From NCBI GenBank assembly GCA_903813345.2, contig CAIIXF020000001.1, positions 28,148,001 to 28,212,000 of the forward strand: DNA of 64,000 bases, written 5' to 3'. A program made the position numbers and the translations under genes. Of the stretch, positions 3,090 to 25,300 are shown in pieces (position 1 is the first letter of the stretch; each line of letters begins with the position of its first letter). The notes under the pieces are model-generated. The model was not told where the DNA came from. It worked only from the letters and a program-made list of their open reading frames with translations, and ran no database searches. The stretch comes from Owenia fusiformis. Its lineage: Eukaryota.

Positions 3090-3730
3090 GATAACTTGGG
3101 ATTGTGTCACTTTATCACTCTGTTTATTGTACTTAGTTATGTCTAGATAACTGTGATTGTGCCATTTGACACGGTGAATCATTTTACTGTCAAACATTAC
3201 TGATATGTTTGATGACTTTTTATGGGAGGAAAGATTGTATTGTTGCTGTGTATGATTATACTTTGCGATTGCCTAAAGATTGTGTATAGACACAGCGGAT
3301 TAAGTTGTTGCTTTGCATGATTGTGCTATGTGGTTGATTAAAGAATGTATTAGGCACTGGGTATTGTATAACTACTGTGTGTGATTGTGCTATGTGGTTG
3401 CTGAAAGGTTGTGTTTAGACACTGGGGATTGTGTCACTACTCTGCATGATTGTGTTGGCTGATTGTGTTTACATATTGTGTCAGTTTACATAGTGTGGGC
3501 TCTGTTATTGCTATGAACGATTGTGATATATAATTGTTTAAATATTTACTAAAAACAATACTGATTTTGTTTGTGATTTTGCTGTGAATGATTGCTCAAG
3601 ATTATTTTAATTGGGTCTTTGAATACAAGAATTGAGCCACTGCTATGAAGTTATTGGTTATGGATATTTTATGATTGTGTGTAGACACTGGTTTTTACCG
3701 CTGGGTTTTACTATTCCTGTGGATGATTAT
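3090..3730. repeat. Degenerate minisatellite (~60-70 bp unit)
   Basis: Recurrent GATTGTGCTATGTGGTTG, GATTGTGT.TAGACACTGGG and GATTGTGTCACT motifs. Confidence 0.5.
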
Positions 3731-5769
3731 ATCATATTATAGTTTGTAAAGTATGATTTTGAGACCCTACTGCGTTTTTACTGATGTACTAGGTGCATTC
3801 ATGCACCCTCTGGGTCTCTGAGGATCGTGTTGGACCCAGGGGTGCATAACGTGCAATGTAAAGGAAGAGGCTCGATAGAGAGAGCTTTTTAGATGGGTAT
3901 AAGTTTTTTATTATTTCGATGATCAATATAAAATTGTAACACAATTTAGGAGATGAGGTGAATTTTCATATTCTAAAATATTATTTCTGAATCATCAAAA
4001 TGGATTTTTCTACAACCTTTTTGGCGAATCGATGAACTCGTTTTTCAGGTTTAACCCTTTCTTTGTGGTTAAATATAATGCCCTTTATATAATTATAGAA
4101 ACAAAATATTTTGTTTCTAGGTCTTTAATTATCTAAAGTCTTACATAATGTGGACACATATTTGTTTAACTGATCAGAAATATTTTTTTTCCCCATTTAT
4201 CAATTTTTCCATGTTAAAGTATAGGGGGGCTGAGATCCCCGGGAATTCCTGAGGTTTGACCCATTATGTTATGGTTTTGAACCGATGATAAGTTTATAGA
4301 GGGAAATGCTGTTCCATCGAATTATTTGATTTTGACTGAAATTAACGCATTACGTTATTCACACTGGGAGCTACAAAATATTGGGTTACGGATTTATTAA
4401 AACGTACCTTTTTATCTCGCATTCTCGGTTTACCTGCGTATCATGATTTATGATCATGATTTATCGTTTATGCTTTGCTCACATAAGTTCAGATTCACCT
4501 TATGGGTGCCTACCGATTACGGTATTTTTCAACTGCCAACCGATCACCGGCAGACGTTGCGCCGGGAGAATTTTCACAATCAAAATGTAAATTACATTAT
4601 AAAATATGTATCAAATGAAGAAAAGGATGTCCAGATGGGTGCTGTTCGGCAATTGTAAGATTATAGTGTTGCTTGTAATATCATAAGTTGAAGAAAATTG
4701 GATTCTTGGAATACATGTTCGTTAACGTTTTGATTTTGATTGTATATATTTATAATTCATATGTAATATACGATTGACTGTACTTTGAAGAGAAAACAAG
4801 TATTTTACCAATTAATAGAAGAATTCAAAAGCTCTAGCGAAGTAACCTTTTTAGTTTATATTCGCCAAAACGTAAAACGATAGAAAATCATATATTTTTG
4901 AAACATCGCTTATTGGAACCATTTCACTTGTCGACTAACTTGCGGTAAGTTAGTTGTACATGAACTGGGCAGGTCGTAATATCCCTATTTACCAGTTAAA
5001 GACATTCAACATGTTATGACCGAAATAATCAGTTACGATCCGTAGTATAATTAACAAATCCAGTGCCACGGAATAAATAACTTGAAAGTGGTGATAAGCC
5101 ATTCAGGACTACTTAGATTATTCATTTATTTTATTTTTCTAGTTTATTGACGGCCATTTATGTTTGTTAAACATTTTCATCATATAAATATGTATCAAAA
5201 TGTTTTGGTCTGCAATATTTCTTATTTAATAAATCTTTTTCAAGCAAATGGAAATTGTTATCATAATTCCATCTGAAACAATGGAACAATCATATAAATA
5301 TGAAATACAGGCATTTTACAGATAAAGTATAGTTAGCGTTGCTGCAGAAATAGGATTAAAATTCCAAGCGGGGCTATTATAATACATATTATTGAAAAGG
5401 GAAATCTTAGACTGGCTGAAACTTATGTCCAAAAGATATATGAAGAATTGCCCCTAATTGAAATTGCAGCATTTTAAGAACTTACCAGGGTTTATCTATT
5501 CAAAACTAGCTACAGTTCATAAGATGCGAGGCATTTATAAAATAGTGAATCAATATTAACAACGAAAGCATATCTATACAAGGATGGATAAAAACATTAA
5601 TGCCTGGTGTAAACGGGTAGGAGGTTCTATCAATTATGGTCCTACTCTCCATTGATTTATATGGTGACCTAAACTCTTTCCCTCATTATCTTATACGCAA
5701 TCTGGGCCAATAAGGGCCGTTAAGAAAGGGGACCATAATCCCTGGGGGACCATCATTTCTTTCACACCT

Positions 5770-5902
5770 GGTCACATTTGCTCAGATTTATCGGCCGGCG
5801 TCCGGCCGATTGAGTATCCTGCTGACAATTGCATTCAGTTTTGAACAGAATATTTAATCTGTCGGCCGCCGGGCAATGAATCGGAGCAAATGTGGGATAA
5901 CC
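5770..5902. mobile_element. Small palindromic MITE family (GGTCACATTTGCTC...); further copies or fragments near 14995-15042 and 18524-18643
   Basis: CACATTTGCTCAGATT...AATCGGAGCAAATGTG inverted ends; the CGGCCGATTGAGTA core is shared with the copy at 18524-18643. Confidence 0.55.
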
Positions 5903-6101
5903 AATTAACGAATATCTACAGACTGCTCATCTCTTGTAGTACTGTATATGTCTATGAATTCCGTCTAAAAGAAGACGTTCTCTAAAACTTTCTAATGGAA
6001 TACATGTATAGGACTAGAAACACAATGCAAATTCACGTTTATGCAATATAATTTCTTTTTTATTAAATTCAATCTTTCAACACTTTATGGAGCTGTTACG
6101 T

Positions 6102-6234
6102 TAGACCACGTGGGCTCACCGTTCGCTACAGTATGGATACGTTTTGCAGATGGCAGGGCTAGACATGGACATACGGTTGGCTAATCAAATAGTTTTAAAG
6201 CAGGATATTCCGAACGGTGAGCCCACACGGCCTA
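6102..6234. mobile_element. Short palindromic TAG...CTA element
   Basis: TAGACCACGTGGGCTCACCGTTCG...CGAACGGTGAGCCCACACGGCCTA; no clear TSD. Confidence 0.55.
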
Positions 6235-6597
6235 GTGCAATAGCCACTCATTACATTTCGATACTCATAACATCCTTCTGTTTCAACCGAAACTTGCTTT
6301 GATTTTATTAGGCATATTCTGTGATCTGAACACATCAGATGGGATGTGTTATAACTGTCAATAAGTGTGATAGTTATCATATACCTTAATGTCAATCCAT
6401 TACATAATAGGCATTGTATTCAACCACATATAAATTAGCAAAGGCACAGATGCACAGTTTTAGGACTGGAGAAGAAATAAGATGTCATGATTTATCAGGA
6501 CTCATTAGCTATTTAACATACTCTATATGTTAACATTATTATTGTATTTTGTTTCAATTCAAAAATTGAATTCAATTAATTTTAGTTGTACAATGAT

Positions 6598-7109
6598 CAC
6601 TGGTGATCCGCTCGATTACGCTGGTTACCGAAACGGTTCGTTTTGGTAACAATATGTCGGACATCGAAGGTACGATTTTTCTTTTTCCTTATTTCACGCG
6701 TTGTAGGCAGAATACCAGCGACGTTTTTGTCACAAACGTGTATCAGCATCATATGTTTTAGAAAATGTACATGTTTGCGAAAAAATAGCTCAGAAGACAA
6801 CAGAATCGTCGATTTAATTCCTCACTTAAGTGCAGATCTTAACTGTTTTTCGAAAAACCGTTTATGTAACTTAAGTGAGAAATTAAATCGACGATTCTGT
6901 TGTCTTCTGAACTATTTGTTCGCAAATATGTACATTTTCTTAAACATATGATATTGATACACGTTTGTGTTAAAAATGTCGTCGGAATTCTGCGTACAAC
7001 GTGTGAAATAAGGAAAAAAGTAAAATCGTACCTTCGATGTTCCGACATTTTGTTACCAAAACGAAACGAATCGTTTTGGTAACCAGCGTAATCGAGTGGA
7101 TCACCAGTG
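6598..7109. mobile_element. Transib-like foldback MITE
   Basis: CACTGGTGATCC...GGATCACCAGTG, palindromic over nearly its whole length; 5-bp TSD ATGAT (6593-6597 and 7110-7114). Confidence 0.85.
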
Positions 7110-7249
7110 ATGATTATCCCCGAACAATAACTCAACTGAGTCTACATTCAGCGCTTTATCGTATTCTATATGTGTTATTTTTAGTACCATCGTAAGTACA
7201 TCTGTGAAGCCCCGTTGTGTAGCCTAACGTAGCTACTTGTACAATGGTA

Positions 7250-9394
7250 CCTGTTACACTGCTGGGTTGAGTCTAACGAAGCATTTTTGTAACGAAGGTT
7301 AGCGAAAAAATTGTGTCCACACTGGCTTTATCCAACCCTAACGAAGCAATTATTTGGTGTTACACTGCACTTAAAATGCTTCGTTGCGCGTGCGCATTAC
7401 TCATCTGCCCCACCCACTTATTATGATTAATATTTTTATTCTTTTGATATAAACCATTGATCAAACTCAATTTTTAATCTTTATTTTAACAAATCAGCAC
7501 AGAAAAAGACTAGTTCAAAATTCTCGGGAAAATAAAACAAGATAAATGTGATCATTCCGTACACATGTCCATACATTTTTCCTATCATTTCGATTTTTAT
7601 ATATTTCAGCTGTCAATTACGATTACAAGTATTGTTTTCATTTTCTATCATTTCCTTTGGAAAACATATGGAATAAAAATAGGCCTATGTTAATTACTAG
7701 GAGGAATTGGATTTGGGGTTTATACAGACGACTAAGTATGTTATATCGTATAAAAACGTTCAACTTCCAAATGGACTCCTTAACTCAAGCGGTCCTAACT
7801 TCGACCTACCAGATGCTTGAAAATCAAGGATTGCGAGTCTCATACTGCACCGTTTTTCTTCAAACTTGTTCCATTCAAAGCAAAACAAAATTGCCTTTCT
7901 GTCGGTGCATTACTTTATTGTAAAGAGTCCCTCGTTCTAGCAGCGTTTTGGTCCCCAGCTGTTGGAAGGCCTTCTTAGTAGGGACTCTGTTTAAGAGAAT
8001 AATGTACCATCAGAAAGGGATTTTTGTTATGCTTTGAATGGAACAAGTTTGAAGAAAAACGGTGAAGTATTAGACTCGTAATCCTTGATTTTCAAACATC
8101 CGGTAGGTCAAAAATTCAAATTAACGGTCGAAGTTAGGACCGCGTGTAACTACTATTTCATGACCAATTCATTTTAATATGAATATTACCCGTCTCGCCA
8201 ATACTCCATGCATATTTGAGTGAGTTTGACATAAATTAGTATGTTAATCCATCAGCCGTCCGTTGAATTCGAAAATGGCGTAAATAGGAAGAAACTTGAA
8301 TATCAGTTGTAAGCATCGTCTTACGACACATCAATAGTGTTTGGGGCTGGCCTAAAACATGCAGCCTCTCTGTGGCAAATATCTGTCGACAAGAAACAAT
8401 TTTGGCCACCGTTCCTTGTCCGCAGGTTTTACCGTATTTGTATACGGAAGTTTTGAAACGTAATTAATTCAATATATTTAAACATGAAGTTTAAATTCAA
8501 TTACAATTTAAAATCGTCGAAGAATAAAATAATGGAACGACTAGTACAAGAACATGTATTGCAATGGGGCGACGAGCCAGTTGAATACGATTTCTGAAGA
8601 GAGACATTTTCGAATCAATCAAATCGGCTATATTCCGGCCTGATGTGATTCACCGGGAAGCAATTGTATCAGTATTATGGTATTAACACCTTTAGAATTA
8701 CATATAATTACGTATAATTATTCGAGGCGCAAGAAAAAATTAATATTAACCATGTATGCCACAACTTTCTATTTAGTAAGCATATCTTATGTAATTTCAA
8801 AAGTTTACCCTTCCACACTTGAGACGGAGTTTTCCGACAGAGGGACATTTAAATATTCTAGGTTTATTCTCTAATAGATCAGATAAATGTTTCAAAATTA
8901 GCTTATACATATACGGTAAAACCTGCGTTTTTTAGATTTAATACTTTTTGTCATATCAATTCGAGGAAAGGCAGGGAATCGAATGAAATGCTACGAAAGA
9001 CGGTAAATCACATTTGTACGTGGCGTTTAGGGCTTGAGGTAGGTAATTATTTTAATCAAAACGTAGCATTATAATAATACGTACTTAAAAACATGTTCTT
9101 TCCTCGCGATTCCTCTCATTTAATACAAAATGATGAATGTGCTCTTTATTACGCGCATGCGCAAACCGCCAACTAAGCATTTTCTAACGAAGCTACCTGT
9201 TACACAGGCCAAAAAAGCTTCGTTGGGAGCTAACCTTCGTTGAATTTTCTACTCAATTGCTTCGTTATCAACTAAGCTTTTCCAACGAAGGCGGAGGTGT
9301 TACACTGGCCCAAAATTGCTTCGTTACGAAGCTTTTTGTCAAATTGCTTCGTAACGAAGCATTTCAACTGGCCTGTGTAACAGGGGTCAATGAC
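7250..9394. mobile_element. Non-autonomous DNA transposon (PIF/Harbinger-like ends) with subterminal TAACGAAGC repeats
   Basis: CCTGTTACAC...GTGTAACAGG inverted ends; clusters of AACGAAGC/GCTTCGTT and GTTACAC motifs at 7250-7390 and 9170-9390. Confidence 0.6.
7786..8146. mobile_element. Transib-like foldback MITE, nested in the 7250-9394 element
   Basis: CAAGCGGTCCTAACTTCGACC...GGTCGAAGTTAGGACCGCGTG with ~150-bp arms; 5-bp TSD TAACT (7781-7785 and 8147-8151). Confidence 0.8.
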
Positions 9395-11084
9395 TACAAT
9401 GGTAACTTTGTGAGTGTCTGTAAATGCCATGATGCAATATAAAACACTGTAAAAATCTGATAATTATTTTTGATTACTATGACAAGTAAAAGATTTATAA
9501 CACTAACCTAATGCATAGTTTTACACATCTACATGCACACATTCTACTCGAATGTTACTATTTGAGATAATTCTTTTCGAAGCGATCGTACAGTCTTCAT
9601 ACATTGGAAGAATCACAATTTAGCATTGTTTTTTATGATTATAATAAATATAAATATGATAAGGTTAATGACATATCAAAATTCTTGTTGGAGTGGTCAA
9701 AATCATATACTCTCGATAAACTTTGATAAACGATTTTTATTCATTATCCATGGAAGACAAAATATGGCATAACTACACCCTGATGTGGTGTTAAATTCAT
9801 GTAGGCATATTATGTACATCTATATTTATGTTGATGTGAAATATAAAGTTATGATATTGGTCAACATGCAAAAAATGAACAAAAAATATATATATCGAAG
9901 CGTATTTCGAAAGTTTTGAGGACGACATTTTGTTTTTCGATTTTGACCAATCAGAAACATATGTCATCTCAATAGGGGTTTACATGTTCATGTTCTCTAC
10001 CTGGGAATGAGAGCCCATAATTCAATTTTTGAACTAGTCTGAAGAGACCTACATGCAAAGTTCATAGAAAAAAGAAAAATCACAAATATGAATACAGTTT
10101 GATTATAAGTCTATTGGAATTTTCATCGTGTTGATTTTAAAGTCTATTACAGAAGTTACTGTTATGTTTACCACACTGGTACCAGTTAGTGGTATGTTGA
10201 ATGGTATGAGTTGTTGAGTTTCACCTTCACCCAGATCATGCAGAATATCAACACGGCGTTCCTTGTAGAAAGTAGTTCTTGGTTTGTCTTACATATGATA
10301 GATAGTAAGATATGATAGGCAATATTCTCCTTTGACAAGATGTGACTGACACAGTTTTGTGTTGGAGTGTAGCTATATGCGGTGCAATCATACCATATCT
10401 AACATCACATAGCATGCTCATCCCCGTGCTCATCACAGAAAGATGTCAACACGTATGCCTCTCCATTAAATAATTCTTTTTTATATGCAGTATCTCGACC
10501 CGATCCTATCTGAAATATAAGAAATATATATAATCAAGTTACTTGTTGTATTTCCCAGAACTTATATAAACATCCATGACCAATATTCCCATTCTATTGA
10601 TATTGTTATCGTCTCGGGGTACCATAAATCGAAACAAGTAAATCCAAAATCGCAAGAAAAGATAAAGCTTGAAACAGGAACTACATGTTTCAAGACAGCT
10701 TGCAAATCCTATGGTTTTTCACATGATGAGATGGAAGAGCTAAAACTTATCCAAACATACTAGTTAATTAGTTCTAGTAATTCATCTAGTTTGTCATTAT
10801 TTATTACATTAAATATGTCTAAAGCATCGAAAAGTAATGTTTTCACCGCATGAAAGTAAAGTTGATCGATTTGTCGTACATGTAGATCGAGAGAATTGTG
10901 TGAAATCAACCGGGCTTTCTTGTGTCATCTGGGCTTTGTTCAGAATTAGTGAAACTTGAAACATAGAAGCAAGAAAAGAAATGTACGGTTTCTGTTATTT
11001 TGCTAAAATATAGGTCTCATCGCTCTTATTTGAGGCAATGCCATGCCACATGGCAGTTGTTAATCTTATACTTTCTTTCTTTCA

Positions 11085-12580
11085 ATAACAAGCCTCTTAA
11101 ATGTCATGTCAAACTCTGTTTATTTCGTATTATCTTCAGCAATTGTTTAACCACTCTTCATGTTTCATAAGCTAGTTCCACTCATATTGTCATGCCAAAC
11201 ACTGTTTATTTCATTTATCTACAAGTTGTCTATCGCATTGTTTCAAAAGCTAATCAAACAATTGTCATACCAAACTCTGTTTATTTCGTATTATATACAT
11301 GTTTTCAATCGCTTCTTTATGTTTTACAAGCTAGCTCTACTCAATTGTCATGCCAAACTCAGTTTATTTCGTAATTTTCATATGCTAATTCCACTCAATT
11401 GTCATGCCAAACTCTGTTTATTTCATTTCAAGTTGACAATCGCCTCTTCGTGTTTCACAAGCTAATTCCTGCCAAATGTCATGTCAAAATCAGTTTATTT
11501 CGTATTATCTACATTTTTTCAATCGCTTCTTTATTTTTTACAAGCTAGCTCCACTCAATTGTCATGCCCAACTCGGTTTATTTCATTTTAAGATACAGTT
11601 GTCAACCGCCCCTCGGGTCTCATAAGCGACAATCAATTGTCATGCCGAACTCAGTTTATTTCGTAATTTTCATATGCTAATTCCACTCAATTGTCATGCC
11701 AAACTCTGTTTATTTCATTTATCTACAAGTTGACAATCGCCTCTTCGTGTTTCACAAGCTAATTCCTGCCAATTGTCATGTCAAAATCTGTTCATTTCGT
11801 ATTATCTACATGTTTTCAATCTCTTCTTTATCTTTTACAAGCTAGCTCCACTCAATTGTCATGCCAAACTCGGTTTATTTCGTTTTAAGATACAGTTGTC
11901 AACCGCCCCTCAAGTTTCATAAGCGAATTCCACTCAATTGTCATGCGAAACGTTTTATATTTCATTTATCTACAAGTTGTCAATCGCCTCTCCATGTTTC
12001 ACAAGCTAATTCCACTCAATTGTCAAACATAATTTATCTACAAGTTGTTAATCGCCTCTTCATGTTTCAAAAGCTAATTCCACTCAATTGTCAAGCATCA
12101 TTTATCTACAAGTTGTCAATCGCCTCTTCATGTTTCACAAGCTAATTCCACCCAACAGTAATGTCAAACTCTGTTTATTTCGTATTATCTTCATGTTTTC
12201 AATCTCTTCTTTCTTTTTACAAGCTAGCTTCACTCAATTGCCATGCCAAACTCGGTTTATTTCGTATTAAGATACAGTTGTCAACCGCCCTTTAGGTTTC
12301 AAAAGCGAATTCCACTCAACTGTCATGCCAAATTCCGTTTATTTTTTTTCTCTACATGTTGTCAATCGCCTCTTCATGTTTCAAAAGCTAATTCCACACG
12401 ATTGTCATGCCAAACCCTGTTTATTTCCTATTATCTACATGTTTTCAACCTAAGCTTCATTTTTTACAAGTCAGCTCCGCTCAATTGTCATGCCAAACTC
12501 AGTTTATTATTTATTATCTACAGTTGTTAGCTGCTCTTCATGTTTCATTAGTTAATTCCACTCAATTGTCGTGCCAAACA
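11085..12580. repeat. Tandem satellite, ~80-bp unit, about 20 diverged copies
   Basis: Repeated GCTAATTCCACTCAATTGTCATGCCAAACTCTGTTTATTTC...CAATCGCCTCTTCATGTTTCACAA; accounts for the repetitive ORFs at 11160-12598. Confidence 0.95.
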
Positions 12581-13517
12581 TGTTCCAGTGCTTTATAAGA
12601 TATAATTATCTACATGATATAAAAGCATCTTTTCAAGACTAATTATTACTACGAACAAATGACATTCAATACCTCTTCCCAAATAATATCTTCTCATGAT
12701 CATCATAAACAATATCAACATCTTTGTTGCCATTGTTACACTATATATTGAACCTGAACCTGATACGACTTGGATACATTTACCGAAGAGTACATAGAAA
12801 AAGACAAATATTTTTATAAACCCTAGAGATACATATATCGAAAGATATACAGGACTCTCTAGGATGTAACCAATGTGAACGTTCAAGATAAGTTTCACTT
12901 TCATAAATATATTGAAATACATACAAGAGCAATGAATCCGAGTTAGCCTGAGTCAATTGTCAGAGATAAAAGATTGCTTCAAGGACAACGTATTTCCAAA
13001 AATTAGTTTCTGAGTTCATACTTCGTATTATAATCCTAATATCATTAGATCGTTTTGAGTATAGACATCACTTCAACACAAACAATCACAATGTTTAGAT
13101 ATGCCTCAAGCTACAAATCATATTAACGTCGTCATCATCATGAGCACCATCAGTCATCGTTGTCGCCAGAGTTATCGTCGTCATCTTGCACCTGAAAGTA
13201 CAGTAATACATGTATGGGTGCACACCATCTTCTCTTCAACTTGCATGCATTACAGACAACATTTGCATAATTTCAAACAGGCCTCGGTTCTGCTAAAAAC
13301 TCCTGCCAAAGAACCCTACCTTTTCGAACGAATTGGACTTATACATGTTAATACGTATAGCCTGTAAAATAATATAACTCGTTAAAACTCAATCAACCAA
13401 TGTTCTTTTGAGATAATGAGGATGGTGTCGAAGAAAAAAAATAATTAAAAATTAAAAAATATCGGACACAGATAAGACACAAATAAAATCATCGATAATC
13501 AAACTGAAGAGGTTTTA

Positions 13518-14591
13518 CAGGGCGTTCAATAAGTACTGATAAAAATGCTGTAACTTTTTATTTTTTCAGATATCTAACTAATTATTTTAGTGTGGATCGT
13601 TGAGTAATATACAGTGTGTCTAAAAAAATATGTTACACTTACAAAAAATTCAATATTTTTCATAATTTTGATTTTTCCCTAAAACATACTTTGGATATCA
13701 AAAGACAAATCTTTCTCGAATAATTTGACACCATTGAATTCAAAATCATCAAAATGAAAATTGTTCCTCAGTCAATTGTTTGCGCACAAACTTGTCACAA
13801 ATCAATGTCATTTCTAAATCATTATGAATAAAATGATGCGTGCAACCAAAATTTGAATTAGTCATGTCTGCAATTTTTCTGATAGGAATTCATTCAATAA
13901 GTATATTGCATCAATCTGACTATGGGAAGTTACAGCTTTTGGTCACTCCTGTCTGGGTTCATCTTCAACTGACTTTCTCCCTATTTGAAATAGCAGAACC
14001 AATGATATATGCCAGGGATAGATATAGTGTCCTCCCCAAAACCTTCATTAATGTCCTTTGTTGCATCCTATTTTGATTAACTTATGGTTGCATGTATATA
14101 GAACTTGACGCTGCTTCTAATTTGATGAATATCATTGATATATTCTGTTCAGCAGCCATGTTAAGTGATGCCAAGGTATCTTAGTACCAGTGTGTATTAC
14201 CCAACTGTCAAAATCGATTCAAAATAAAATTATTAATGACTGTTCACATTTGAAGTGGTTCTTTGAAAAGATTTTCGTGCAGATCTAAACCACGGCGAAC
14301 CATCTTAGGCTCCATCCAGTACCACCTTCCTGTTAGAGTGCACTTCCTTGATGCCAAGGTATCTTAGTATTATATTATGAAAATGTTCACATTTGAAGTG
14401 GTTCTTTTGAAAAGATTTTCGTGCATATCTAAACTACAGCGAACCATCTTAGGCTCCATCCAGTACCACCTTCCTGTTAGAGTGCATTCTTGTAATTCTC
14501 ACAGCACAATACTCAATAACGTTCAGTAGAAAAGTTAGTCAGAAATATAAAAAAAATTTAGCAATTTTATCAGTATTTATAGAACGCCCTG
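13518..14591. mobile_element. Non-autonomous Tc1/mariner element, with a second Tc1-type end nested at ~13612
   Basis: TA|CAGGGCGTTCAATAAGTACTGATAAAA...TTTTATCAGTATTTATAGAACGCCCTG|TA; internal direct duplication at ~14165-14485. Confidence 0.8.
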
Positions 14592-15385
14592 TATATAGCT
14601 CTGATATGCAATATTTAGGCCTCTTGGATATAATCGCCTTTTTAAAAATCGCTTAAAATACTTCCTTGCTGACGTCCTTACTTTCGAAGACGAACACTAA
14701 TCCAAATTGTTATAATAAGGGTTCCAAAATACGTAGGAGTTTTTACATGATTTATAAAGATTTGGGTTTCATCTAGATAAGTATATTAAGCCTATACCGA
14801 GTTATATATTATAATTCGATAACCAGAGCCACTACAATATTATGTTTTAGATATGAAATGTCAAAATAAATTCTATGAATAAAAAATGATGATCAACTTT
14901 GTGTTTGTGAAATACCATGAACCACAAAATACCATAGACGCGGATAAATGATTAGTTTTGCGCTTAGATACATATTGAATTGAATAAAAATACTCCGAAT
15001 CGGCCGGGCGTCGTAGTAAATATCGGAGCAATGTGACCACGGTATCACCAGGCCTGTTCTAGGGGTATAAGTGCTAGTTTAGAAGGCATTTATTTAAGGA
15101 ATAAAGACCGATATTTTATAATTTATGGCGCAATGTATGACCAAAAATTATATTCTACTCATTGTTAAAAAACCGAAATCGCGTAGCAATTGCCAGAATA
15201 AAATCTGAGGTCATATATTTGACATTAATCATGAAATCAATTCTAATATGATAGACAGACAAGAAAAACAATTATTACCACCTTACCGGTCCTATTCTAG
15301 GGTTATGAGTGCTAGTTTAGAAGGCATTTATTTTACTATATCAACATGAGCAGTTACGTCATATTGGCGGGCCATATTGCCGGTC

Positions 15386-15802
15386 AATAAATAAGGGTTA
15401 TGTACTGGGAGGTTTTGGATATGGGGTTTATCCAGAGGGAGATATGCATATCTACCTGAGGGACCGTAGGGACTGATGGTAGATGTGCATATCTCACGAG
15501 GAATGAACCCAATATCCAAACAGACCGTACATAACTGCTTTATCCTATACCAAGTAGAGTTTTCAGGAGCATATGGCCATTTCAATAGTTCAAGGTGTGA
15601 AAATAAACAAATCATTCATATGCAAAGTCATTTTATTGCATTATCGGAAGCGGGAAGATATGCACCGGAAGCGGGAAGATATGCACCGAAGCGGGAGATA
15701 TGGCGGGAGATTTGGAGGTTCTGGATATGGAAACCTCAAAATCAGGATACGGGATATATATTACCAACTTATCTTCCTAAAACTCTACTTGGTATAGGAT
15801 AA
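15386..15802. mobile_element. Palindrome-ended non-autonomous element (Crypton-like architecture)
   Basis: A ~140-bp hairpin GTTATGTAC...GTACATAAC followed by the inverted pair TTATCCTATACCA...TGGTATAGGATAA; no TSD seen. Confidence 0.45.
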
Positions 15803-15902
15803 TGCATTTTACAATCGGCAATTTTCCCCGAGAAATTAGATATCGTTCAGCGCGTAAGGTTTTCTTGCTATTTCAGCTCTGGTCATTAACGGTGGTAATA
15901 CT

Positions 15903-16012
15903 CGTAGTAACGTCATTTCTGCGAGCAATATAGAAAAATATTGGACCTTGGGCCTTCGGCGCTCAATCCAATATTTCAGTATATTGCCCTTCGAAATGAC
16001 GTTATTGTACTA
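15903..16012. repeat. ~110-bp imperfect palindrome (isolated Crypton-like terminal hairpin)
   Basis: TAACGTCATTTC...AATATTGGA...GGCCTTCGGC...TCCAATATT...GAAATGACGTTA. Confidence 0.5.
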
Positions 16013-16329
16013 CTCTTTGTATTTATGAATTTTGGCGGCCATACATATTCCAATAAAGACCATTAATTCAATTGTTGTAGCTATTGTGACTTCACGTATC
16101 GTATTAGAATTTACTATATCGACTTGACCAGTATGTGGAAATAAGATGAAATGTTCAACTTAGTTTAGCAGAAATCGGTAGTTTTCGAAAACGAAAGAAT
16201 GTCGGCAACTATCTTGAATGAAGCTACAGTCAAAACAGAAATGTTTGGGAGTACTTTGAATTTAAAACTAAGCAATCAAATGACCATATTGAAACAGTTT
16301 ATGTAAAAATCCTATACAGACCAGTTTAA

Positions 16330-16729
16330 GGTACAGCTGGAAAGTAACATTTTGGTAAAAAATTGCTTGTATATACCTGCACATGTTATTTTCTGGTACA
16401 AAATTAAGTATGAAGTCATGTGTGTATTTCCTTGCTTTTTTCAGGAAAGGATCATTACACTGTCTATTTTTAGTAAACCTGGAAACAGGTCAATGATAGT
16501 TCCTGTGTTGTCTGAAAACTTTGAAAGAAAAATAGAAAGTGTGGAATATCGGAATGTCTTGGAGTTCCCATTGAACTCCTACCAGATACTCTAAAAGAAG
16601 ACAATGTAATGATACTTTCCTTAAAAAAGCAAGGAAATTGACACATGCCTTCATACTTTATTTTGTACCAGAAAATAACATCTGCAGGTATAGAAATGTT
16701 TTACCAAAATGTTACTTTCCAGCTGTACC
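16330..16729. mobile_element. Kolobok-like foldback MITE
   Basis: TTAA|GGTACAGCTGGAAAGTAACATTTTGGTAAAA...TTTTACCAAAATGTTACTTTCCAGCTGTACC|TTAT, with arms longer than 100 bp. Confidence 0.8.
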
Positions 16730-19700
16730 TTATGACGTTTTCATCTGGGGTTTTGTAGTGACTTATTCCGTCCCTATTAATAAATGGAGGGCATCAATGA
16801 TAACACCTCTCAACCAAATGCTCCAATTTACTTGACCCACACAAAAGCAATATCCAAAAACAATTATGTATATCATGATATCATGAGAGGTACGAGTGGT
16901 CGCACTTTATACGACCTTTCAAACGTTATTGGGGTGGGGGGGGGGGCATACTCACTCTTGATTTGTGATGTGCCAGCTTTCAGAAGCATCACAGACAACT
17001 GTAGCCTTTCCCGTCTTGGGTCGGTCGCTTTTGCTTTTGGGTACGTTGCTGAGACTTATTAGACCTGACGCATTCGTTATAATATGTTTCTAAATTCAAC
17101 TGTGCTTCAAGTACGAGGCTGAACACGGAAACCGATTCTGTACAAGTGTAAGTTCAATTCACTCCAGGGAGTGTATTCAGTTGTTATATGTTACGTACAT
17201 ATTCATTGATGCCTGCTAAATGTTCGAGCTTGTTCGGTCAACCTGTCCTTGAATGTAATACATACTGTATAATCATTGTGAACATAAAAACTCGTTTAGT
17301 CTTTAGTGTCCTAAACATTGTACCCCTAATTAACAAAACATTCTAGATTGAGCATGTATTTTTGAAGTTATTGATTATATCAATCATACGAGTGTACGAA
17401 ATAAACGTATCAAACAAAAAGCATCCATCGTTGACACACACATTCCGTGAACACTCAAATTAATCAATTTGATGCTTCAAGCAAGGTTGACATATAGAGA
17501 TTTTGTTGGGACCGCCCTCAGTGATGTTTCAATACTAATATTATCTAAACGATGTTCAATCAACAAAGACCATATCAATATGTTTCTTTTCTGGAATATA
17601 TTGATGGCAATTTCTTTCCCAATTTGTATATTACCTTGAAGTTAATTATGTCTGAAATCTGACAAAAAGTGCGAGGCGTATTTTTCATACGCTCTCTACA
17701 TCTTTCACATTTACACAAAGAGTACACTAAAGGTAACCAGAACAGAGCGTAGTGAACGTTATATAAAAAATTGGAAAATGAAGTAGCCGACTTATTTTTT
17801 ATTTTTAAAAAGTAAGTCACTGGATTTTCTCGTTTTCATACATTTTATAAACGAAATATTGTCCACACTCTTTTCTCGCTACAATAGTGCAGTCTTTATG
17901 CAAAACTGAAAGTTGTAGACAACATTGGAAAGAGGTCCATATTTGAAAGTAATGTGTGGCTTCGTTAAAATTAGACTGTATAAAAATTCCCCAAAAACAC
18001 ATCTACCTTAAAGTTGCTTGAGAGATTAAGAAAGTGTTTCCATGACTAACTTGGGGTCTGTTTTGAGAGAAAGTCCCTGAAATGAGAAATTCACAAAAAT
18101 CGAGGGGATCACATTCTGCTCAATTTTGTTCATGACATTGCTAATGCGCATAAACATTACTAAGTACACCATGCAACACCGTTGTGTTACAATGTAGGTA
18201 CATACAATTAATGTAGTTACGTGTACAATACATAATACAACTTAATATCTTTAACGAGCAGGTTAGACTCTTCCATACTTTTTTAAAAACTTTTCAAAAG
18301 CAGTACTAGTTTTAATATGTATTCAGTCATAAATCACGTCAACACAACCAACGTGCAATATTTTGACAGACGTTGTCACCCATTAATGCCTAAACCTGTC
18401 ATGAGCACGTACAATCAAAATATTTGTGCGTCAATCAAGCCGTGAAAATAAGCAACCAATATCAAAATATAAGAAAGCCCAAGATACATTGTATTTGTAA
18501 AAAAGGGAACGTTACATAATGTCAGGTTCATATTTGCTGCGATTCATCGGTCGGCCCTCGGCCGATTGAGTATTTTGTTTCAAACAAATACAATTTTGAA
18601 CAAAACACTCAATCGGCCAGACACCTATGTGACCCAGCCATAACGTGGGCTAATTGTCGCGAAATGGTTGTTCTAGCTAACTGTGATATAAATGCTAATT
18701 GCATATATTTTGTAATCTCTCAATTTATAACATGTTAGGCTATGTCAGATATGTGTGAGCGTAAAATATTAAATCGACTCCTGTATGATATATATAGGTC
18801 ACGTCTCACAAGGCTTATACGTTATCTCAAATCCAGCCTTTAAATTGAAACAGCTTTTACAAATATTTGAGGGAAAATTCGGTATGCAGCTTTTACAACA
18901 TGTGCTCGACCCTTACTGCTGTACAAATTGAAGTGCGGCGTTTCTGCTTGCAATGGGTGTATGCCTACATGCATTAAAAACTGTTGTACATTGTAGGGAG
19001 AAGTGTTAGTTTAAACAAGTCAGCCAATGGAAGTACTAGTGCTGTAACTCGACTAAAAACTAGCCATCATAATTACAAATAAAATTCATCTATGGTCATT
19101 ACCCCATAACAAATCGTGGGAATACTAAAATAAATTGAAATGTATCAGGTCTTATCACTATACAAGAAATGTATTTTATTGCGTTTGAGTCACGTAGCAC
19201 GAATTAGCAAGAAAATGATTTCTATTTGGTCGTTTAACGTTATGAAAATAGAACGGTAATTGTAAATGCAGTATTACTGAGTGAACGGTGTATGTATTAG
19301 TGAATAAGATCACTTAGGCTCTAAGCGGCGAGATAAACTAAGTCTAAGTCTTTAAAATGTTTATGAACATTTTTCGGACAAACCTTTTTCCTTATAACCT
19401 CAATTGTTTAGGATTTCAAAGATTTTTAGCATCATGTTCTCAACAGAATAATAATGGGCATTAATGAATTTGTGATGCTAAAGATAGAAAAGGTTTTACA
19501 GGTGGTCGGAAAGTTTTTAATTTTGAAATGCGATTTGTTATTACTACATTATCGAGAAAGCTTATCAATTGTCCATTATAAACATTTTTGTATATTGTCC
19601 AGCGGCGACACAGCCGCAGAGCCACATTTTGGCAACCAGCATGGATTTACGATAACATTATTGTATGTAAATAATACACTCGGTTTTTCTGCAGCAGCCG

Positions 19701-21356
19701 CAGAGCCACATCCTAGTTAATGTTATGTTTCTTAAGTGGAGGTTAGAATAGAAATCTCAATACTTAACTTGAAAGGCGACTACGTCAACCGCAGATCAAT
19801 TTACTCCCAAGTCACATTTGTCGCACAGTGGCCGTAAGTAGACCGCAGATCAATTATATCAGTGAAGGGAAGCCGTAGATTTTATAACTCGGAGTTACAA
19901 TATTTGTTAATTTCTGCGGTCCCCGTAGAAATCAACAGGCCGTACGTAGCCAGACCGCATAAAGGTCATTTCATTGCAATCCGTTCAAATCGTTAGCTAC
20001 AAAAAATTGATTGACTGAACGTATGATACATAAATGAGAGCTAAGAAAAAAGCGCAAGAAAAAACAGTGAAATGTACTTGAAGTGGCGATTGTGTTTTCT
20101 GCTTACCAGTTACCCAGCTCTAATAGTGCGATATAAGGTGACTTGATTATGCAGATGACAAGACCCCATTGGTTTCCCGGTCAAACAATCAAAACAGACG
20201 GGGACAAGCTTTGTTTGAACTGTTACTATCAGACTATATCTAGTATTTATTTGTTTCGTGACCAGAAATCCACTTAACTATAGGGAATATATTCCGTTAT
20301 AAAGATAGATTGTTTTCACTTACCAATCATTCACTAACATGTGCTGTCATATTCAGCTCTGGCCTTCATGTCAAATGGGGGAAGGGTAACCCCCACACTG
20401 AATAAATTCAAAGTTCGCGCACCCTTCTTTTTCATCAAAGAACAGTTTACGATAAAAGGCCGAACGCAGAAAACATTGAAATTACGAACGCGGTACGTTC
20501 GGGGTATTTCTCTCGGCCTTGGAATTACTTAAGAAAAATAGACCATCCATAGACGACATGGCAACGACATCTAATTTTCGTCGAGTGAATCATTTCCAAA
20601 GATAATCAATTTTAAGAGAAAATTGCACATAATGGTTTTGCGAGACGACCTCTATCTAACACAAGTAAAATTCTACTAAAGAGATCGCTCAAAAATGTTG
20701 AAAAAATGTAACCATTTTTCTCATCAATTTTAAGACATACTTCTCATGGATCGAATCACGATTTCTTTACAGAAAATAAGACTTTGCTTTATTATGTGGT
20801 TACGATATATGTTATTTTGCTGCTTAAAAAACGTTAAGTCATTCTATTTACGCACTGAAAAACGGTACAAAATATAAGATGGAATTTCATCGCTTCGCCA
20901 AAAAAGTTCTACAAAATGCGTTTTTCATAATTCAACAATAATATTTTAGAATATAAAAATTCATCACACCTCCGATATAGTCTGAAAATTCCATAATGAT
21001 CGTGTAGAAAATAAAAAAGTTGTACTCATCTAAAAAGCTCTCTCTATCGAGCCTCTTCTTTTATCAAATTTAAGAAATGCTGAAAAGTCCGGATCTGATG
21101 TTTTTGACTTTTCTCCAAAGATCTTACCTCGATCTTGAAAATTCTTTCACCACTGGATAGCGGGACCAAAAATCTTCAAAATGAACCCATAAATGTTTCG
21201 CTTTATTACAGTAATTATGTGTAATCGTTGCAGATAAGACGAAATTACATTTCCGACCGGTCTTCTTGACATTTTCGCTGACCTAATTTCAAGTGCGCAT
21301 GCGTTGCATAAATCAGTGAGATGATCACGTGACGTAATTTGATGATCACGTAACGT

Positions 21357-21511
21357 AATGTTTTCCAATAACCAGTTGGTAAAACTGCTATAGTAGATTC
21401 TTGATTCAATATGTTTGTTATCACTTGTAACTGTTCTGGCTTCAAATCAAATCCAAACTTTGGTTTTATGTTATGCGAATAGAGATCATTGATTTCTTCC
21501 ATCGAATACAT
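21357..21511 (-). pseudogene. N-terminal fragment of a RecQ-like superfamily-2 helicase (probably transposon-borne)
   Basis: KFGFDLKPEQLQVITNILNQESTIAVLPTGYWKT matches the Q-motif/motif 0 and motif I (LPTGxGKS/T, here mutated); similarity ends right after motif I. Confidence 0.75.
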
Positions 21512-21668
21512 GATGGTCGAATGAATGATATAAACTCTGTATAGTCACTTGTAACTGTTCTGGCTTCAAATCAAATCCAAACTTTGGTTTTATGTTATGC
21601 GAATAGAGATCATTGATTTCTTCCATCGAATACATGATGGTCGAATGAATGATATAAACTCTGTATAG
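21421..21668. repeat. Exact tandem duplication, 2 x 124 bp
   Basis: 21421-21544 is identical to 21545-21668. Confidence 0.95.
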
Positions 21669-22213
21669 TAACATAGATGGCAGCAATATTCAATGGCTAC
21701 TCTCGTCAAATCTCGTGAGAACTGAAGCCGCCATAAAGATTTTGTGAACATTAGCGATAAACGGCGATTTTGCTACAAAATTAGCACAATTCAACCTTCT
21801 ACAACCTCAAAGATATGGTAATCTTTTGTATAAATCATCAATGTATCCATTTTGTTTATATTTCTCTGTAAATGACGCAGAGATTTAAGCAGAAGATTAA
21901 ACTAAAGTGAACCGTCAAAAATAATCAAGAAAAACTTAGATTGGCATGAATTTACAAGGATAAACACCGCCTCTAATGCAAGTCCATACTACAATCCAAC
22001 GCATTAGAGGCGGTGTTCACCGTCTACTGATGTACATGATTGAAAATTAGAATAATATTCACGTTCGCTATTATTGTGCGTTTGCCGTTCGTTCATTTGG
22101 TGAAGACAGCCTCGATATGGAGTTGCTACAGAAGCTTTTAAAACTTTAATTTCAAACTGCTCCAAGAAATGGATTGATTTCACAGTTATTAAAGCCTATA
22201 TATACATATAACA

Positions 22214-22337
22214 ATGCCACCAAAGAAACCTTTAACTTCTAAAGCACCAGCTAAGACAACTACGAAACCCGCTGCGAAGACAACAGCTGCAAAAACTGGA
22301 GTCAAGCCACCTGCGAAAAATGCTGTGAAAAAAACTG
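22214..22337 (+). CDS. IQANK1: IQANK1-like exon 1 (MPPKKPLTSKAPAK...)
   Basis: ACAATG start, Lys/Ala/Pro-rich frame, G|GTGAG donor in phase 1 matching exon 2. Confidence 0.8.
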
Positions 22338-25300
22338 GTGAGATGTATGAGACTGGCTCATATGAAGTAGATCTAGACGAGTTTACATAGTTGCTTGTGT
22401 AGAAATATTGCTGTTGTAAAACGTTGTCAGTAGCTTAGTTGACACAAATCTTAATTTTATCACAGTATCTTGTAGCACGTTTATGATGACTGATATGGGG
22501 CTGTATGGGAGACTGATATGCTTAGAGAAGGATTATAACGCCGACAAATTTCGAAAACTGGAAGTAAAAAAAATATATGAATTATTGGTCAGAATTTTAT
22601 AATTAGGGTCTTATTTTGAAAAAAAATCTTTCTTCTGTAAGATAAATGTCACTGCCTAACATTTAGATAAATTTAAATAAAAAAGTTTCTTTACTTTCTG
22701 ATACCCATGCTAAGACCGTTAGGTGCTGTCCAACCAAAACTCACCTTTATAGCGATTTCTCCCCAAATCTTTCGCCAATTAACTTGTCCTTTACTCGTAG
22801 AATCCTTTACCCACTAGAGATTTGTAGGGATGCTGCGCTTATGCTGTTCAGCCTGTAAAAATATGTTATTTTGCCGTTTTAAAAATGAAATGTTATTTCG
22901 TAGATATTTTGGCAAATTCTAGCGGCCATCTTTGTGAATAATTATGATGTAAATTTTGAACCAATCAAATTGCAGAACCCCGGAGAAGAGCGAAATTCAT
23001 AATATCTATTTATGATTTAAAATATATTTGGGCAGTTAAACATTAAAAAAAACAAAAGATAAATATATATTTTTGTTTATTAACTATTTACATAATTTTT
23101 AATAGCCCCTTTCTATATAGAATTATGAAAGGTCAGACGGGTCAAGTTTACTATGTCATTATTTCAAGATGGCGGCAGTATCAAACAGTCATATTTTTAA
23201 AATTAGTATGCTTTTACACATTTTTGAACAATAATAGTACAATTGAAACAGCGTATACCATTGCGTATGTGTGTATTACAACTGGATCAAACCAGAGATC
23301 AATCGACGAAACATTGAGGGAGAAATCGATCGATAAGGTAAACTATGAAAAATATGTCTGTCGAGGACTTCATGGTCTGATGCTAAGGTAACAGATAAGA
23401 CGAAAAAATCATATTTGCAGCGTGTCTACAAGTAATATAATGACATGTATGTTGCCGCTAAATATTTTTTCTTAAAAATGAGACCCTTATTGTGGAATTC
23501 TGAACAATAGTTTTTTTTATTTTTCATTTACAGAACCCGGAAGAAGTGATGTGTTATTACCCTTATTATTATACTATAGGGCCTATCATAGTGCTCATCT
23601 CATATCATAGTGCTACATGTCTCTGTGAATTTTATTAGTTTATCCTGCAGATTTTCATCTGCAAGATTTCACTAGAGTCCATTTCACTGCTTAATTGCGT
23701 CAGTAAAACCTAAAAAATAAGAAATCATAATATCATTATGCAAGAATATAAGGAAAAATATATTCTTATTGTACATGAATGACATTTGTATATCTTGGAT
23801 TGCTTCTAGTTTGGCTTATAAAGTGTGTGGCCTCTTATTACTCACTTCGAGATCCATGTTAGATTTTGAAACTTATGGCTCTCGAGCGGGTAAATGGACA
23901 GCTGAATAATAGTGACCTTTGAAACACGAATTAAGTCGATCAGCGTCGACCAGCGGCTTACTTTTGTTCTCTAACTATGTCATACATCATTATCATCCTT
24001 CCGTGCAAGTATCGGAGCGCTGAAGTACTTCCTTTTCGATCAAGACTTGTAATTGTTAGTCGAGTGAATGTTTTTTTCTGCCAAATTCCAATATGGCGTT
24101 TTCTGCTCTGACATTTTCGTAAATCTCCTAACTCATTCTCAAAATTCATTTCGTTCGTTGCGTATCTCGCTCCTAGCAAACCGCCATATTGGAAATGGTT
24201 CGAAAAAACATTTACTCGATGAACAATTTACAAGTCTTGATCGAAAAAGAAGTATTTCAGCGCTCCAATACTTGCCTGGATTGATGATACTGATGGAAGA
24301 TACAGTTAGAGACCAAAAATAAGCCGCTGAACGACTTAATTCGATTTCAAAGGTCACAATCATTCAGCTGTCCAAATGCTCCGTGGGAAAGCTATTATAT
24401 CAAAATCCACATAGCTTTCGCAGGAAGTAAGCCTCTTATATTTGGATGCTTCTCTGCCATGTTATTCTCAATAAGATTAACATGGCTGAAATTCTTCAAA
24501 TTACAAGAGGGCACAGGCTTATTGCACAAAAAACTAAAAAATCTAAAATATACAAATGTCATTCATATACAATACGAATATACTTTTCCCTATATTATTG
24601 CACTATGGTCTCCCGATTTCTTATTTTTGGGGTTCTACTGACGCAATAAAACAGTGAAATGGACTCTAGATCTAGATGTAGTTTTAACCAAACTCGTCTG
24701 GCCCAGTTATCTACTCCCCGATTCTGAAATGTCGTAGATCTACGACCTCAGGAGTAGATAACTGGGCCACACAGGTTTGGTTAGATGTAGTTCTAGATCG
24801 ACCTTATTCTTCAGCCACATCGGGCCTTTCGCTATCGTGAAGCCCTGTTTGTTTTATTGCCTTTTGCGCTATCTCTGATGGACTGTTGCTATTAGTGAAC
24901 TAAAATGCAATAAACTTACTTGAGTCTCTAGCCAAATTACTTGGCTAGAAGACATGGCATGTGGACCACCATGCACTAGTGAAGATGTTTATTCTGGAGT
25001 AAAATTTTTTTTAGATGTTATTCAAAAAATCGTAATGAGAATATTTCATCAATCCTTTGTGTGATATTGCATGCTTTCATCTAAACTAAAAATCACTGGA
25101 TCTGCATTCTTTAAAACATCTGTTAAGGTTGAACTTTATCCCGCTATAGCAAAAAACAAAATGGCCCTTTTTACCGAAGAAAAATTTGCTTTTAGAAAAC
25201 ACTAAATTAAAGCCAATGTAGAAGGACATATGAACTAAGACTAGATACTAAGTTCAATGAAGGTATGTTTACTACATTTTAGTTCATTAATAGTGTAATG

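Follow-up and report, generated by a model that had tools for sequence, protein, structure and literature searches.

How did some 18 kb of DNA come to lie between two unrelated hairpins that are flanked by the same short direct repeat? The question is raised by a locus of Owenia fusiformis, which we analysed within a window of 64,000 nucleotides (assembly GCA_903813345.2, contig CAIIXF020000001.1, positions 28,148,001 to 28,212,000 of the forward strand; all coordinates below are those of the window). The original prediction took the whole interval to be one hairpin-bounded transposon able to mobilise about 18 kb of cargo through its hairpin ends. The explanation that we prefer, and hold with about even confidence, is that an outer element, here called E1, is a non-autonomous DNA transposon of about 1,034 bp which makes a target site duplication (TSD) and was later interrupted by a nested element, I2, bounded by terminal inverted repeats (TIRs). 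The two hairpins are probably the ends of one TSD-flanked element, a part of this explanation in which our confidence is clearly better than even.

The interval is delimited by two copies of the 9-mer CTGATGTAC, the putative TSD, one (3781–3789, plus strand) located directly before a TAG (3790–3792) and the other (22027–22035, plus strand) directly after a CTA (22024–22026). As had been predicted for 3781–3792 and 22024–22035, a 9-bp repeat flanks TAG and CTA, and these are its sole two copies in the window. The maximal direct repeat is 11 bp long (TACTGATGTAC, at 3779–3789 and 22025–22035), so that the duplication could measure 10 or 11 bp instead of 9 if the limits of the element were set 1–2 bp further in. 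Two copies of a 9-mer are not meaningful by themselves in 64 kb (the shuffle mean was 0.54, with two or more copies in 10 of 100 shuffles), and the combination with the hairpins was tested instead.

Each end of the interval was found to be a hairpin of its own, in agreement with the original prediction. The left hairpin (3794–3855, plus strand) has a main stem formed by 3801–3816 and 3833–3847 with one bulge (15 of 16 positions paired) and a 5-bp outer stem, and folds as DNA at -17.2 kcal/mol (z -4.2). The right hairpin (21963–22017, plus strand) consists of a perfect 17-bp stem with a 21-nt loop and folds at -19.1 kcal/mol (z -7.6); on its downstream side it is followed by CACCGTCTA and then by the flank repeat. 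For neither hairpin did any of 200 shuffles fold as well. The two ends do not form an inverted repeat, their inverted similarity being limited to TAG/CTA, as had also been stated: local alignment of one end with the reverse complement of the other scored 13, whereas shuffles averaged 12.9 and did at least as well in 239 of 500 cases, and an end-anchored alignment of the two as inverted repeats was equalled by 81 of 500 shuffles. No common subterminal k-mers of 9 or more were found in the inverted sense in the reconstructed E1. The inner TAC boundaries described for both ends do exist (at 3858–3860, as GTA, and at 21953–21955), but nothing shows that they matter.

To put the hairpins and the repeat together, 9,133 overlapping 70-nt windows were folded as DNA (mean -4.1 kcal/mol, sd 2.4). 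A threshold of -15 kcal/mol per 70 nt is reached by just 11 loci of the 64 kb, and the two element ends belong to the 6 of them that fold at -17 or lower. Among the 55 ordered pairs of the 11 strong-fold loci, this pair is the only one to have a 9-mer in common within 12 nt of its outer flanks. In 400,000 trials, random position pairs shared a 9-mer 643 times and an 11-mer 81 times, and the chance expectation over 55 pairs is 0.088 for the 9-mer and 0.011 for the 11-mer. The occurrence of the flank repeat beside both hairpins is unlikely by chance, which is suggestive but, not being decisive alone, falls short of proof.

The hairpins could instead be unrelated local palindromes, or the ends of different small elements, with a flank match of 9–11 bp that is coincidental. 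Such an origin would agree with ends that share no sequence beyond 3 bp and no subterminal motifs, with an expected number of chance pairs (0.01–0.09) that is not zero, and with the way in which the pattern was picked, from a scan of the whole 64 kb in a window full of palindromic miniature inverted-repeat transposable elements (MITEs). However, the match adjoins both hairpins symmetrically, beside TAG and CTA, and contigs of three sequencing runs, described below, bring the two hairpins directly together, or the left hairpin and the sequence that leads up to the right one, which is unexpected unless they represent a deletion allele. We therefore regard coincidence as unlikely, although it deserves to be kept in mind.

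What lies between the ends belongs almost entirely to I2 (3861–21061), an element of 17,201 bp that begins directly after the left hairpin, is bounded by TIRs and is flanked by TA on both sides (3859–3860 and 21062–21063). Its left arm (3861–4036, plus strand) has the right arm (20886–21061, minus strand) as its inverted partner; with the flanking TAs included, 3859–4036 pairs with 20886–21063 over 178 nt at 81% complementarity (E 5e-44), and the match between the arms is perfect, without a single mismatch, over the outer 32 bp (3864–3895 on the left). The 22-mer GAAGAGGCTCGATAGAGAGAGC occurs in the window only at 3864–3885 (plus strand) and 21037–21058 (minus strand), with an expected number of 0.00. 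Since a divergence of 19% that is evenly spread would spare 32 bp with a probability of about 0.001, the arms appear to be TIRs of the functional type with less similar subterminal parts, not decayed copies.

Of the 18,237 bp between the flank repeats, 71 bp at the left end and 965 bp at the right end do not belong to I2. The left segment of E1 (3790–3860, plus strand) begins with TAG and holds the imperfect hairpin, and its last TA (3859–3860) is one flank TA of I2; the right segment (21062–22026, plus strand) holds the remnant of a helicase gene and the right hairpin, and ends in CTA. With the TA counted once, the two segments reconstruct an E1 of about 1,034 bp, laid out as one end, about 550 bp, the helicase first exon, about 300 bp and the other end.

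Sequences in which these parts are differently joined were found in public data. Among the 13 public runs listed, three runs of contigs (X1, X2 and X3), which come from one study under one organism label, contain 0.56, 0.44 and 0.43, respectively, of the words sampled from 17500–27400. Contigs of these runs and raw reads of a further run, X10, were mapped onto 3100–23000 at a threshold of 90% likeness, and the joints reported here are among the 15 listed of 812. Single-copy interior pieces were covered by contigs of X1–X3 at a depth of about 1000–1800 with 0–3 differences; contig depth in these runs is very uneven. Although X10 bears the same species label, 20,429 of its 20,708 mapped reads fit only partly, most of them being 90–95% alike, and because its depth is about zero in single-copy bins, X10 says nothing on the locus.

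Contigs of all three runs contain a joint from 3862 to 21060, which skips 17,197 bases (3863–21059). Its depths are 2205, 148 and 3455, from 1, 2 and 2 contigs, respectively, with 18–35 letters on the shorter side, and the junction reads TA-AA/TT-TA (the slash marking the joint), that is, E1 without I2. A third copy of the I2 family could not yield such a same-strand skip by alignment switching, because the joined arms are mutually inverted. A second joint, from 3833 to 21973, is also present in contigs of all three runs (depths 76, 357 and 194; sides of 21–28 letters) and connects a position in the loop of the left hairpin with one in the 5' arm of the right. An artefact like the joints from 5789 to 18552–18591 was considered for it and rejected, as those joints link two direct copies of one repeat family. 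Since the two hairpins are not alignable in that register, the joint from 3833 to 21973 is taken as a real adjacency and not as an artefact of alignment across copies; the form that it represents is either a very short deletion derivative or a rare deletion allele.

Because 17,201 of the 18,237 bp have TIRs and TA flanks of their own and are exactly the part missing in the joined contigs, a nested insertion into an element of about 1 kb is favoured by parsimony; since I2 makes up nearly all of the 18 kb, these most likely result from nesting and were not captured by E1 as cargo. On this reading, the claim that 18 kb of cargo is mobilised through the hairpins, which finds no support here, should be given up together with the 18-kb extent of the hairpin-bounded transposon, whereas the pairing of the hairpins as two ends of one TSD-flanked element probably stands, given the improbability of the flank repeat and the joined contigs. 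E1 and I2 would most likely represent the ordinary nesting pattern of repeat-rich animal DNA. If so, the locus is a case of routine transposon nesting, and it shows how a long interval enclosed by a perfect TSD may be misread as long as the element nested in it is overlooked.

The order of events that we envisage is as follows. E1, as an element of the cut-and-paste type, would have inserted here and duplicated 9 bp (possibly 10 or 11 bp) of its target. Beyond TAG and CTA it has no TIRs, and each of its tips carries a different strong hairpin, which may be recognised by its transposase or helicase. It may be an internally deleted derivative of a helicase-encoding parent, having kept the 5' part (exon 1, on the minus strand) of a RecQ-like gene. 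I2, presumably unrelated to E1, would then have come to sit at a TA 70 bp inside the left end of E1. E1 could also have come already carrying I2; nothing requires that, and an I2-free E1 exists.

Several observations weigh against this reading of the locus. The joints come from short contigs with only 18–35 letters on the shorter side, and could represent alleles of, or deletions at, the same locus instead of members of a family. The depth of the joint from 3833 to 21973 (76–357, compared with about 1000–1800 for single-copy pieces) would also suit a rare deletion between two fragile palindromes. The I2-free form is not a pristine TA target site, because the junction retains AA and TT. In excision of the Tc1 type, two bases of each element end are left as a footprint between the duplicated TAs; TA-AA/TT-TA could be such an excision footprint, or else the original palindromic TAAATTTA without any duplication, and the latter would weaken the view that TA is the TSD of I2. 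As to E1, no transposase, TIR or common subterminal motif connects its two ends, and the chance probability of the flank repeat, about 0.01–0.09, is not negligible. Neither the left nor the right stem recurs elsewhere in the 64-kb window, which thus holds no second copy of E1 with a TSD of its own. Finally, the minus strand of the left end, where a hairpin is separated by 8 nt from CTAG and T, has the form of a canonical Helitron 3' end, a striking likeness that is taken up below.

Apart from the partner arm of I2 and a local tandem duplication, searches of the window revealed no further copy of an end, a flank or the helicase piece. Searches of metagenome contigs, collections that are evidently without this organism, gave 0 matches for a 26-mer of the right end. 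A 20-mer of the left stem had one metagenome match, which was dismissed as chance since it lies in a GC-rich, apparently bacterial contig without hairpin context.

The joined contigs could be explained as deletion alleles of one locus, formed by breakage or excision and end joining at the palindromes or TIRs; they would then be uninformative on a family, and E1 might be a transposon or not. The low depth of the joint from 3833 to 21973 and its breakpoints, which lie inside both hairpins, are in keeping with this, as is the resemblance of TA-AA/TT-TA to an excision footprint of the Tc1 type. On the other hand, the joint from 3862 to 21060 reaches or exceeds the single-copy level in X1 and X3, and the bins that contain E1 (3764–4427 and 21028–22355) have about 3–8 times the single-copy depth, which fits several copies, the I2 arms adding to the first of these bins. 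We consider that deletion alleles are an improbable account of the joined contigs.

Could the whole unit of 18.2 kb (3790–22026), I2 included, nevertheless have transposed as one piece through the hairpin ends, with about 17 kb of passenger DNA? The perfect TSD and the perfect right stem imply a young insertion, and the interior MITE arms, being 80–92% alike, may predate it and may have been carried in. In the left-flank bin (3100–3763), moreover, the depth in the three contig runs is 246, 9 and 44 compared with about 1000–1800 for single-copy pieces of the interior, as if the unit were elsewhere in those individuals. However, the very uneven depth of the runs offers other explanations for the low left flank. 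The alleged cargo has perfect TIRs of its own and is precisely what the joined contigs lack, so that nested insertion suffices; no second copy of the unit was seen in the window; and a joint from 3789 to 22027, as expected of its empty site, is not present among the 15 of 812 joints listed, which is no proof of its absence. Transposition of the 18.2 kb as one piece therefore seems improbable to us, about as much so as the deletion alleles.

On the right, the longest flank contigs listed (22051–22460) are likewise of low depth and about 3–4% different; this may mean that the flanks have diverged or are haplotype-specific, or may reflect nothing more than very uneven coverage. The contrast between interior MITE arms that are 80–92% alike and the perfect tips of I2 and duplication of E1, together with the low left-flank depth, hints at a possible movement of large units in this genome.

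The contents of the interior do not resemble gene cargo. The longest open frame there has at most 123 codons. Pfam scans were made of 74 of the 86 open reading frames (ORFs) of at least 55 aa (of the other 12, 10 lie in an 82-bp satellite and 2 outside the element) and of 150 of the 181 ORFs of 35–54 aa (the other 31 lie in the satellite, a high-copy block at 15.6–16.9 kb, 18.5–18.7 kb, the right I2 arm and 21.4–21.9 kb). In these two scans no credible Pfam domain was detected in the interior ORFs, except for a weak DEAD match at the right end, and Rfam and tRNA scans of the element found nothing. Since the interior consists of MITE-like repeats, satellite and high-copy blocks without a recognisable gene, we conclude that it carries no gene cargo. 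At least nine MITE-like inverted-repeat structures are present, several of them with arms only 80–92% alike, and several blocks have a summed contig depth at least 100 times that of single-copy pieces. The satellite array inside I2 (11077–12579, plus strand) is about 1.5 kb long and consists of units of about 82 bp with higher-order periods of 131–382 bp that match at 71–93%.

A separate insertion lies within I2. It spans 2,145 bp (7250–9394) and is flanked by a perfect 10-bp TSD, TACAATGGTA (7240–7249 and 9395–9404). In contigs of X1 and X3, position 7239 is followed directly by 9395 (10 letters of the joint being ambiguous) at a depth of about 1081 and with 0–1 differences, the shorter side being 155 letters in X1. 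As the insertion is absent from the contigs of X1 and X3, it is considered recent and polymorphic; the joint therefore indicates that the interior of the locus is represented in these runs and that an element making duplications of 9–10 bp was recently active, which favours the preferred reading of E1. The tips of the insertion are CCTGTTACAC and GTGTAACAGG, its 3' end has 10 additional bases, and it contains several subterminal palindromic motifs of the AACGAAGC type. It is possibly a non-autonomous element of the Mutator-like or Academ type.

The helicase remnant of E1 bears on its possible parent. The RecQ-like fragment claimed to lie inside the right end is real but short: the remnant (21221–21544, minus strand) corresponds to the first coding exon of a RecQ-like superfamily 2 (SF2) helicase and starts at the initiator Met of the family. 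It has about 65–80 codons and retains the motifs FGFDLKPEQL and LPTGYWKT; its Walker A motif is degenerate and broken, and the frame then meets stops. Pfam DEAD matches it weakly (21245–21544, minus strand; E 0.0027). A perfect tandem duplication (21421–21669, plus strand; 124 bp, 2.0 copies) repeats the start of the remnant.

Using HMMER against 1.84 billion representative proteins, we found 46 relatives of the remnant at E values of 1e-3 or less (best 3.6e-9, none at or below 1e-10), 44 of which are no longer than 166 aa. When aligned, they have a common start and the motifs LK.EQL and LPTG.GKS, and many stop at the same point soon after PL..D.V. Because the relatives have the same start and often the same end, the remnant looks like a first exon shared by the whole family. 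Pfam DEAD was found in 12 of the 14 relatives scanned, and a family member of 257 aa shares 27–36% identity with RecQ/WRN helicases (1,208 proteins at E values of 1e-5 or less among 2,913 candidates). In an ESM Atlas search this member met only generic DEAD-helicase clusters, and when a word index was used to look for longer relatives of the 100-aa remnant, none of the 22 candidates scored. A tblastn search of the window with 55 family and RecQ proteins matched only 21221–21689 (minus strand), apart from one marginal match elsewhere (E 0.009). As the remnant starts exactly at the family-wide initiator Met and first exon, it fits an internally deleted coding element better than a random capture of gene sequence.

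To which superfamily might E1 then belong? AcademH is reportedly a lineage of the Academ superfamily. AcademH elements make TSDs of 9 or 10 bp and encode a helicase, whereas AcademX elements make TSDs of 3–4 bp (PMC10045372). The perfect 9-bp repeat at both ends of E1 lies within the former range, and the 9-bp TSD and the RecQ-like remnant, as the original prediction had it, fit these published features of AcademH (PMC10045372). E1 is like AcademH in its TSD of 9 (or 10) bp, perhaps in the RecQ-like coding remnant in its body, in a host that is probably an animal and in an apparently low copy number, but it has no recognisable Academ transposase and keeps only about 65–80 codons of the helicase first exon. 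The Pfam scans could not reveal an Academ-type transposase in the ORFs of E1 and I2, since Pfam has no model for Academ (PMC5751038). In its end architecture E1 has two different hairpins and no inverted repeat beyond TAG/CTA; its likeness to AcademH concerns the length of the TSD and the helicase remnant. A further RecQ-encoding lineage, KolobokH, has been reported from fungi only (PMC9587614). From the duplication of 9–10 bp and the RecQ-like coding remnant, AcademH is a plausible parent of E1 and the best candidate.

A live alternative is that E1 is a non-TIR Mutator-like element with a captured gene fragment. Mutator-like elements make TSDs of 8–11 bp and include families without TIRs (PMC6446971), and Pack-MULE and Pack-TIR elements are described as carrying gene fragments (PMC8277862). 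The 9–11 bp of E1 fall within the Mutator-like range, and E1 resembles non-TIR Mutator-like elements of the VANDAL type, Pack-MULEs and Pack-TIR elements in its TSD, in lacking TIRs as some families do and in having a gene fragment in a non-autonomous element. It differs from Mutator-like elements in that it has no long TIRs and no remnant of a MURA-type transposase or zinc finger. Since non-TIR families are known, missing TIRs do not exclude E1 from this group, and the lack of a MURA-type transposase domain in the Pfam scans of the element ORFs is to be expected for a non-autonomous copy.

A third possibility is that the left hairpin is the 3' terminus of a minus-strand Helitron-like element and the right hairpin perhaps another outward end, without any target duplication. 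Helitrons make no TSD, begin with a 5' TC after a host A and encode a helicase of the Rep/Pif1 type; at their 3' end a hairpin lies about 10 nt before CTRR, and they are inserted before T. Read on the minus strand, the left end of E1 consists of a hairpin, an 8-nt spacer, CTAG and T, which is a canonical 3' end with the A/T context, and the right end on the plus strand similarly consists of a hairpin, 6 nt, CTAC and T. CTAC does not, however, correspond to CTRR, and the identity of 9–11 bp in the flanks, at fixed positions, would be pure chance. E1 differs from Helitrons also in the direct repeat of 9–11 bp that flanks the unit, in the hairpin at its other end and in its helicase remnant, which is RecQ-like and not Pif1-like; it is the sole helicase remnant, and none of the Rep/Pif1 type was found by the Pfam scans of the element ORFs or by tblastn. 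A Helitron origin of the ends is therefore judged to be very unlikely.

I2, for its part, resembles TA-targeting TIR elements (Tc1/mariner- and Stowaway-like) in the TA on both sides, the 32-bp perfect TIRs and its precise absence in other sequences. The TA flanks are those of Tc1/mariner-like elements, with the caveat that the joined form retains AA and TT: the junction TA-AA/TT-TA resembles the two-base footprint of Tc1/mariner- or Stowaway-type elements, but it is not a pristine TA site. I2 is also unlike these elements in that its 17.2 kb are far above their usual size, its TIRs do not start with the usual CAG-type motif and no transposase remnant is present; the Pfam scans of the interior ORFs revealed no DD(E/D) transposase domain in I2. 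It is possibly a very large non-autonomous TA-targeting element, or else its absence elsewhere is possibly an excision footprint. As an element of 17 kb that is bounded by TIRs, is non-coding and is precisely absent elsewhere under the same organism label, it may exemplify the movement of non-autonomous DNA of very large size.

In having long repeat-rich DNA between two paired ends, the locus resembles the composite transposons of bacteria and eukaryotic macrotransposition. It is unlike composite transposons in that the ends bounding the long stretch are the TIRs of I2 and not the hairpins.

A bolder proposal can be made, which we regard as doubtful. E1 would represent a family of animal DNA transposons whose ends are set by two different hairpins instead of inverted repeats, which make a 9-bp duplication and which are mobilised in trans by a parent encoding a RecQ-like helicase (AcademH-like), the helicase handling the structured ends. 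In its boldest form, such ends, or the TA-flanked ends of I2, would move 17–18 kb, and TA-AA/TT-TA would be the footprint of a 17-kb element that is still mobile. End recognition by helicase-encoding transposons of the Academ type has, to our knowledge, been little studied, and a TSD-making element with different hairpin ends beside a RecQ-like remnant bears on it.

Two further repeats within I2 were noted. A very high-copy repeat with a GGCCGATTGAGTAT palindrome is present in two copies (5772–5835 and 18528–18625); the bins that contain them have a summed contig depth of about 24,000–194,000, and many contigs and X10 reads switch between the copies. A 1,078-bp element (13516–14593) has TA-flanked inverted termini beginning with TACAGGGCG and is Tc1/mariner-like. 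An opposite-strand joint between 13559 and 14554 in X10 (117 and 112 reads) suggests that foldback or short palindromic relatives of this element are abundant.

The window as a whole is AT-rich (GC content about 27–47% per 2-kb window) and dense in repeats, with MITE-like palindromes, fragments of reverse transcriptases of long interspersed nuclear elements (LINEs) and one long zinc-finger gene. On the minus strand, the frames at 35179–36307 and 40139–40907 resemble the C-terminal parts of non-LTR (LINE) reverse transcriptases and are joined to TDRR repeat runs. An open frame of at least 1,214 aa (60354–63998, minus strand), which runs off the end of the window, is rich in zinc-finger motifs of C2H2-like type (C..C...FxNKYxLxxH..xxH); the stretch around it, at 42–47% GC, is the only GC-richer one in the window, and the frame probably represents a genuine host gene. 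A tRNA-Ser(CGA)-like sequence called by ARAGORN (25346–25416) lies inside a repeat that is present twice, 275 bp apart (25290–25362 and 25565–25637, 86% alike), and may be the head of a tRNA-derived short interspersed nuclear element (SINE) rather than a tRNA gene.

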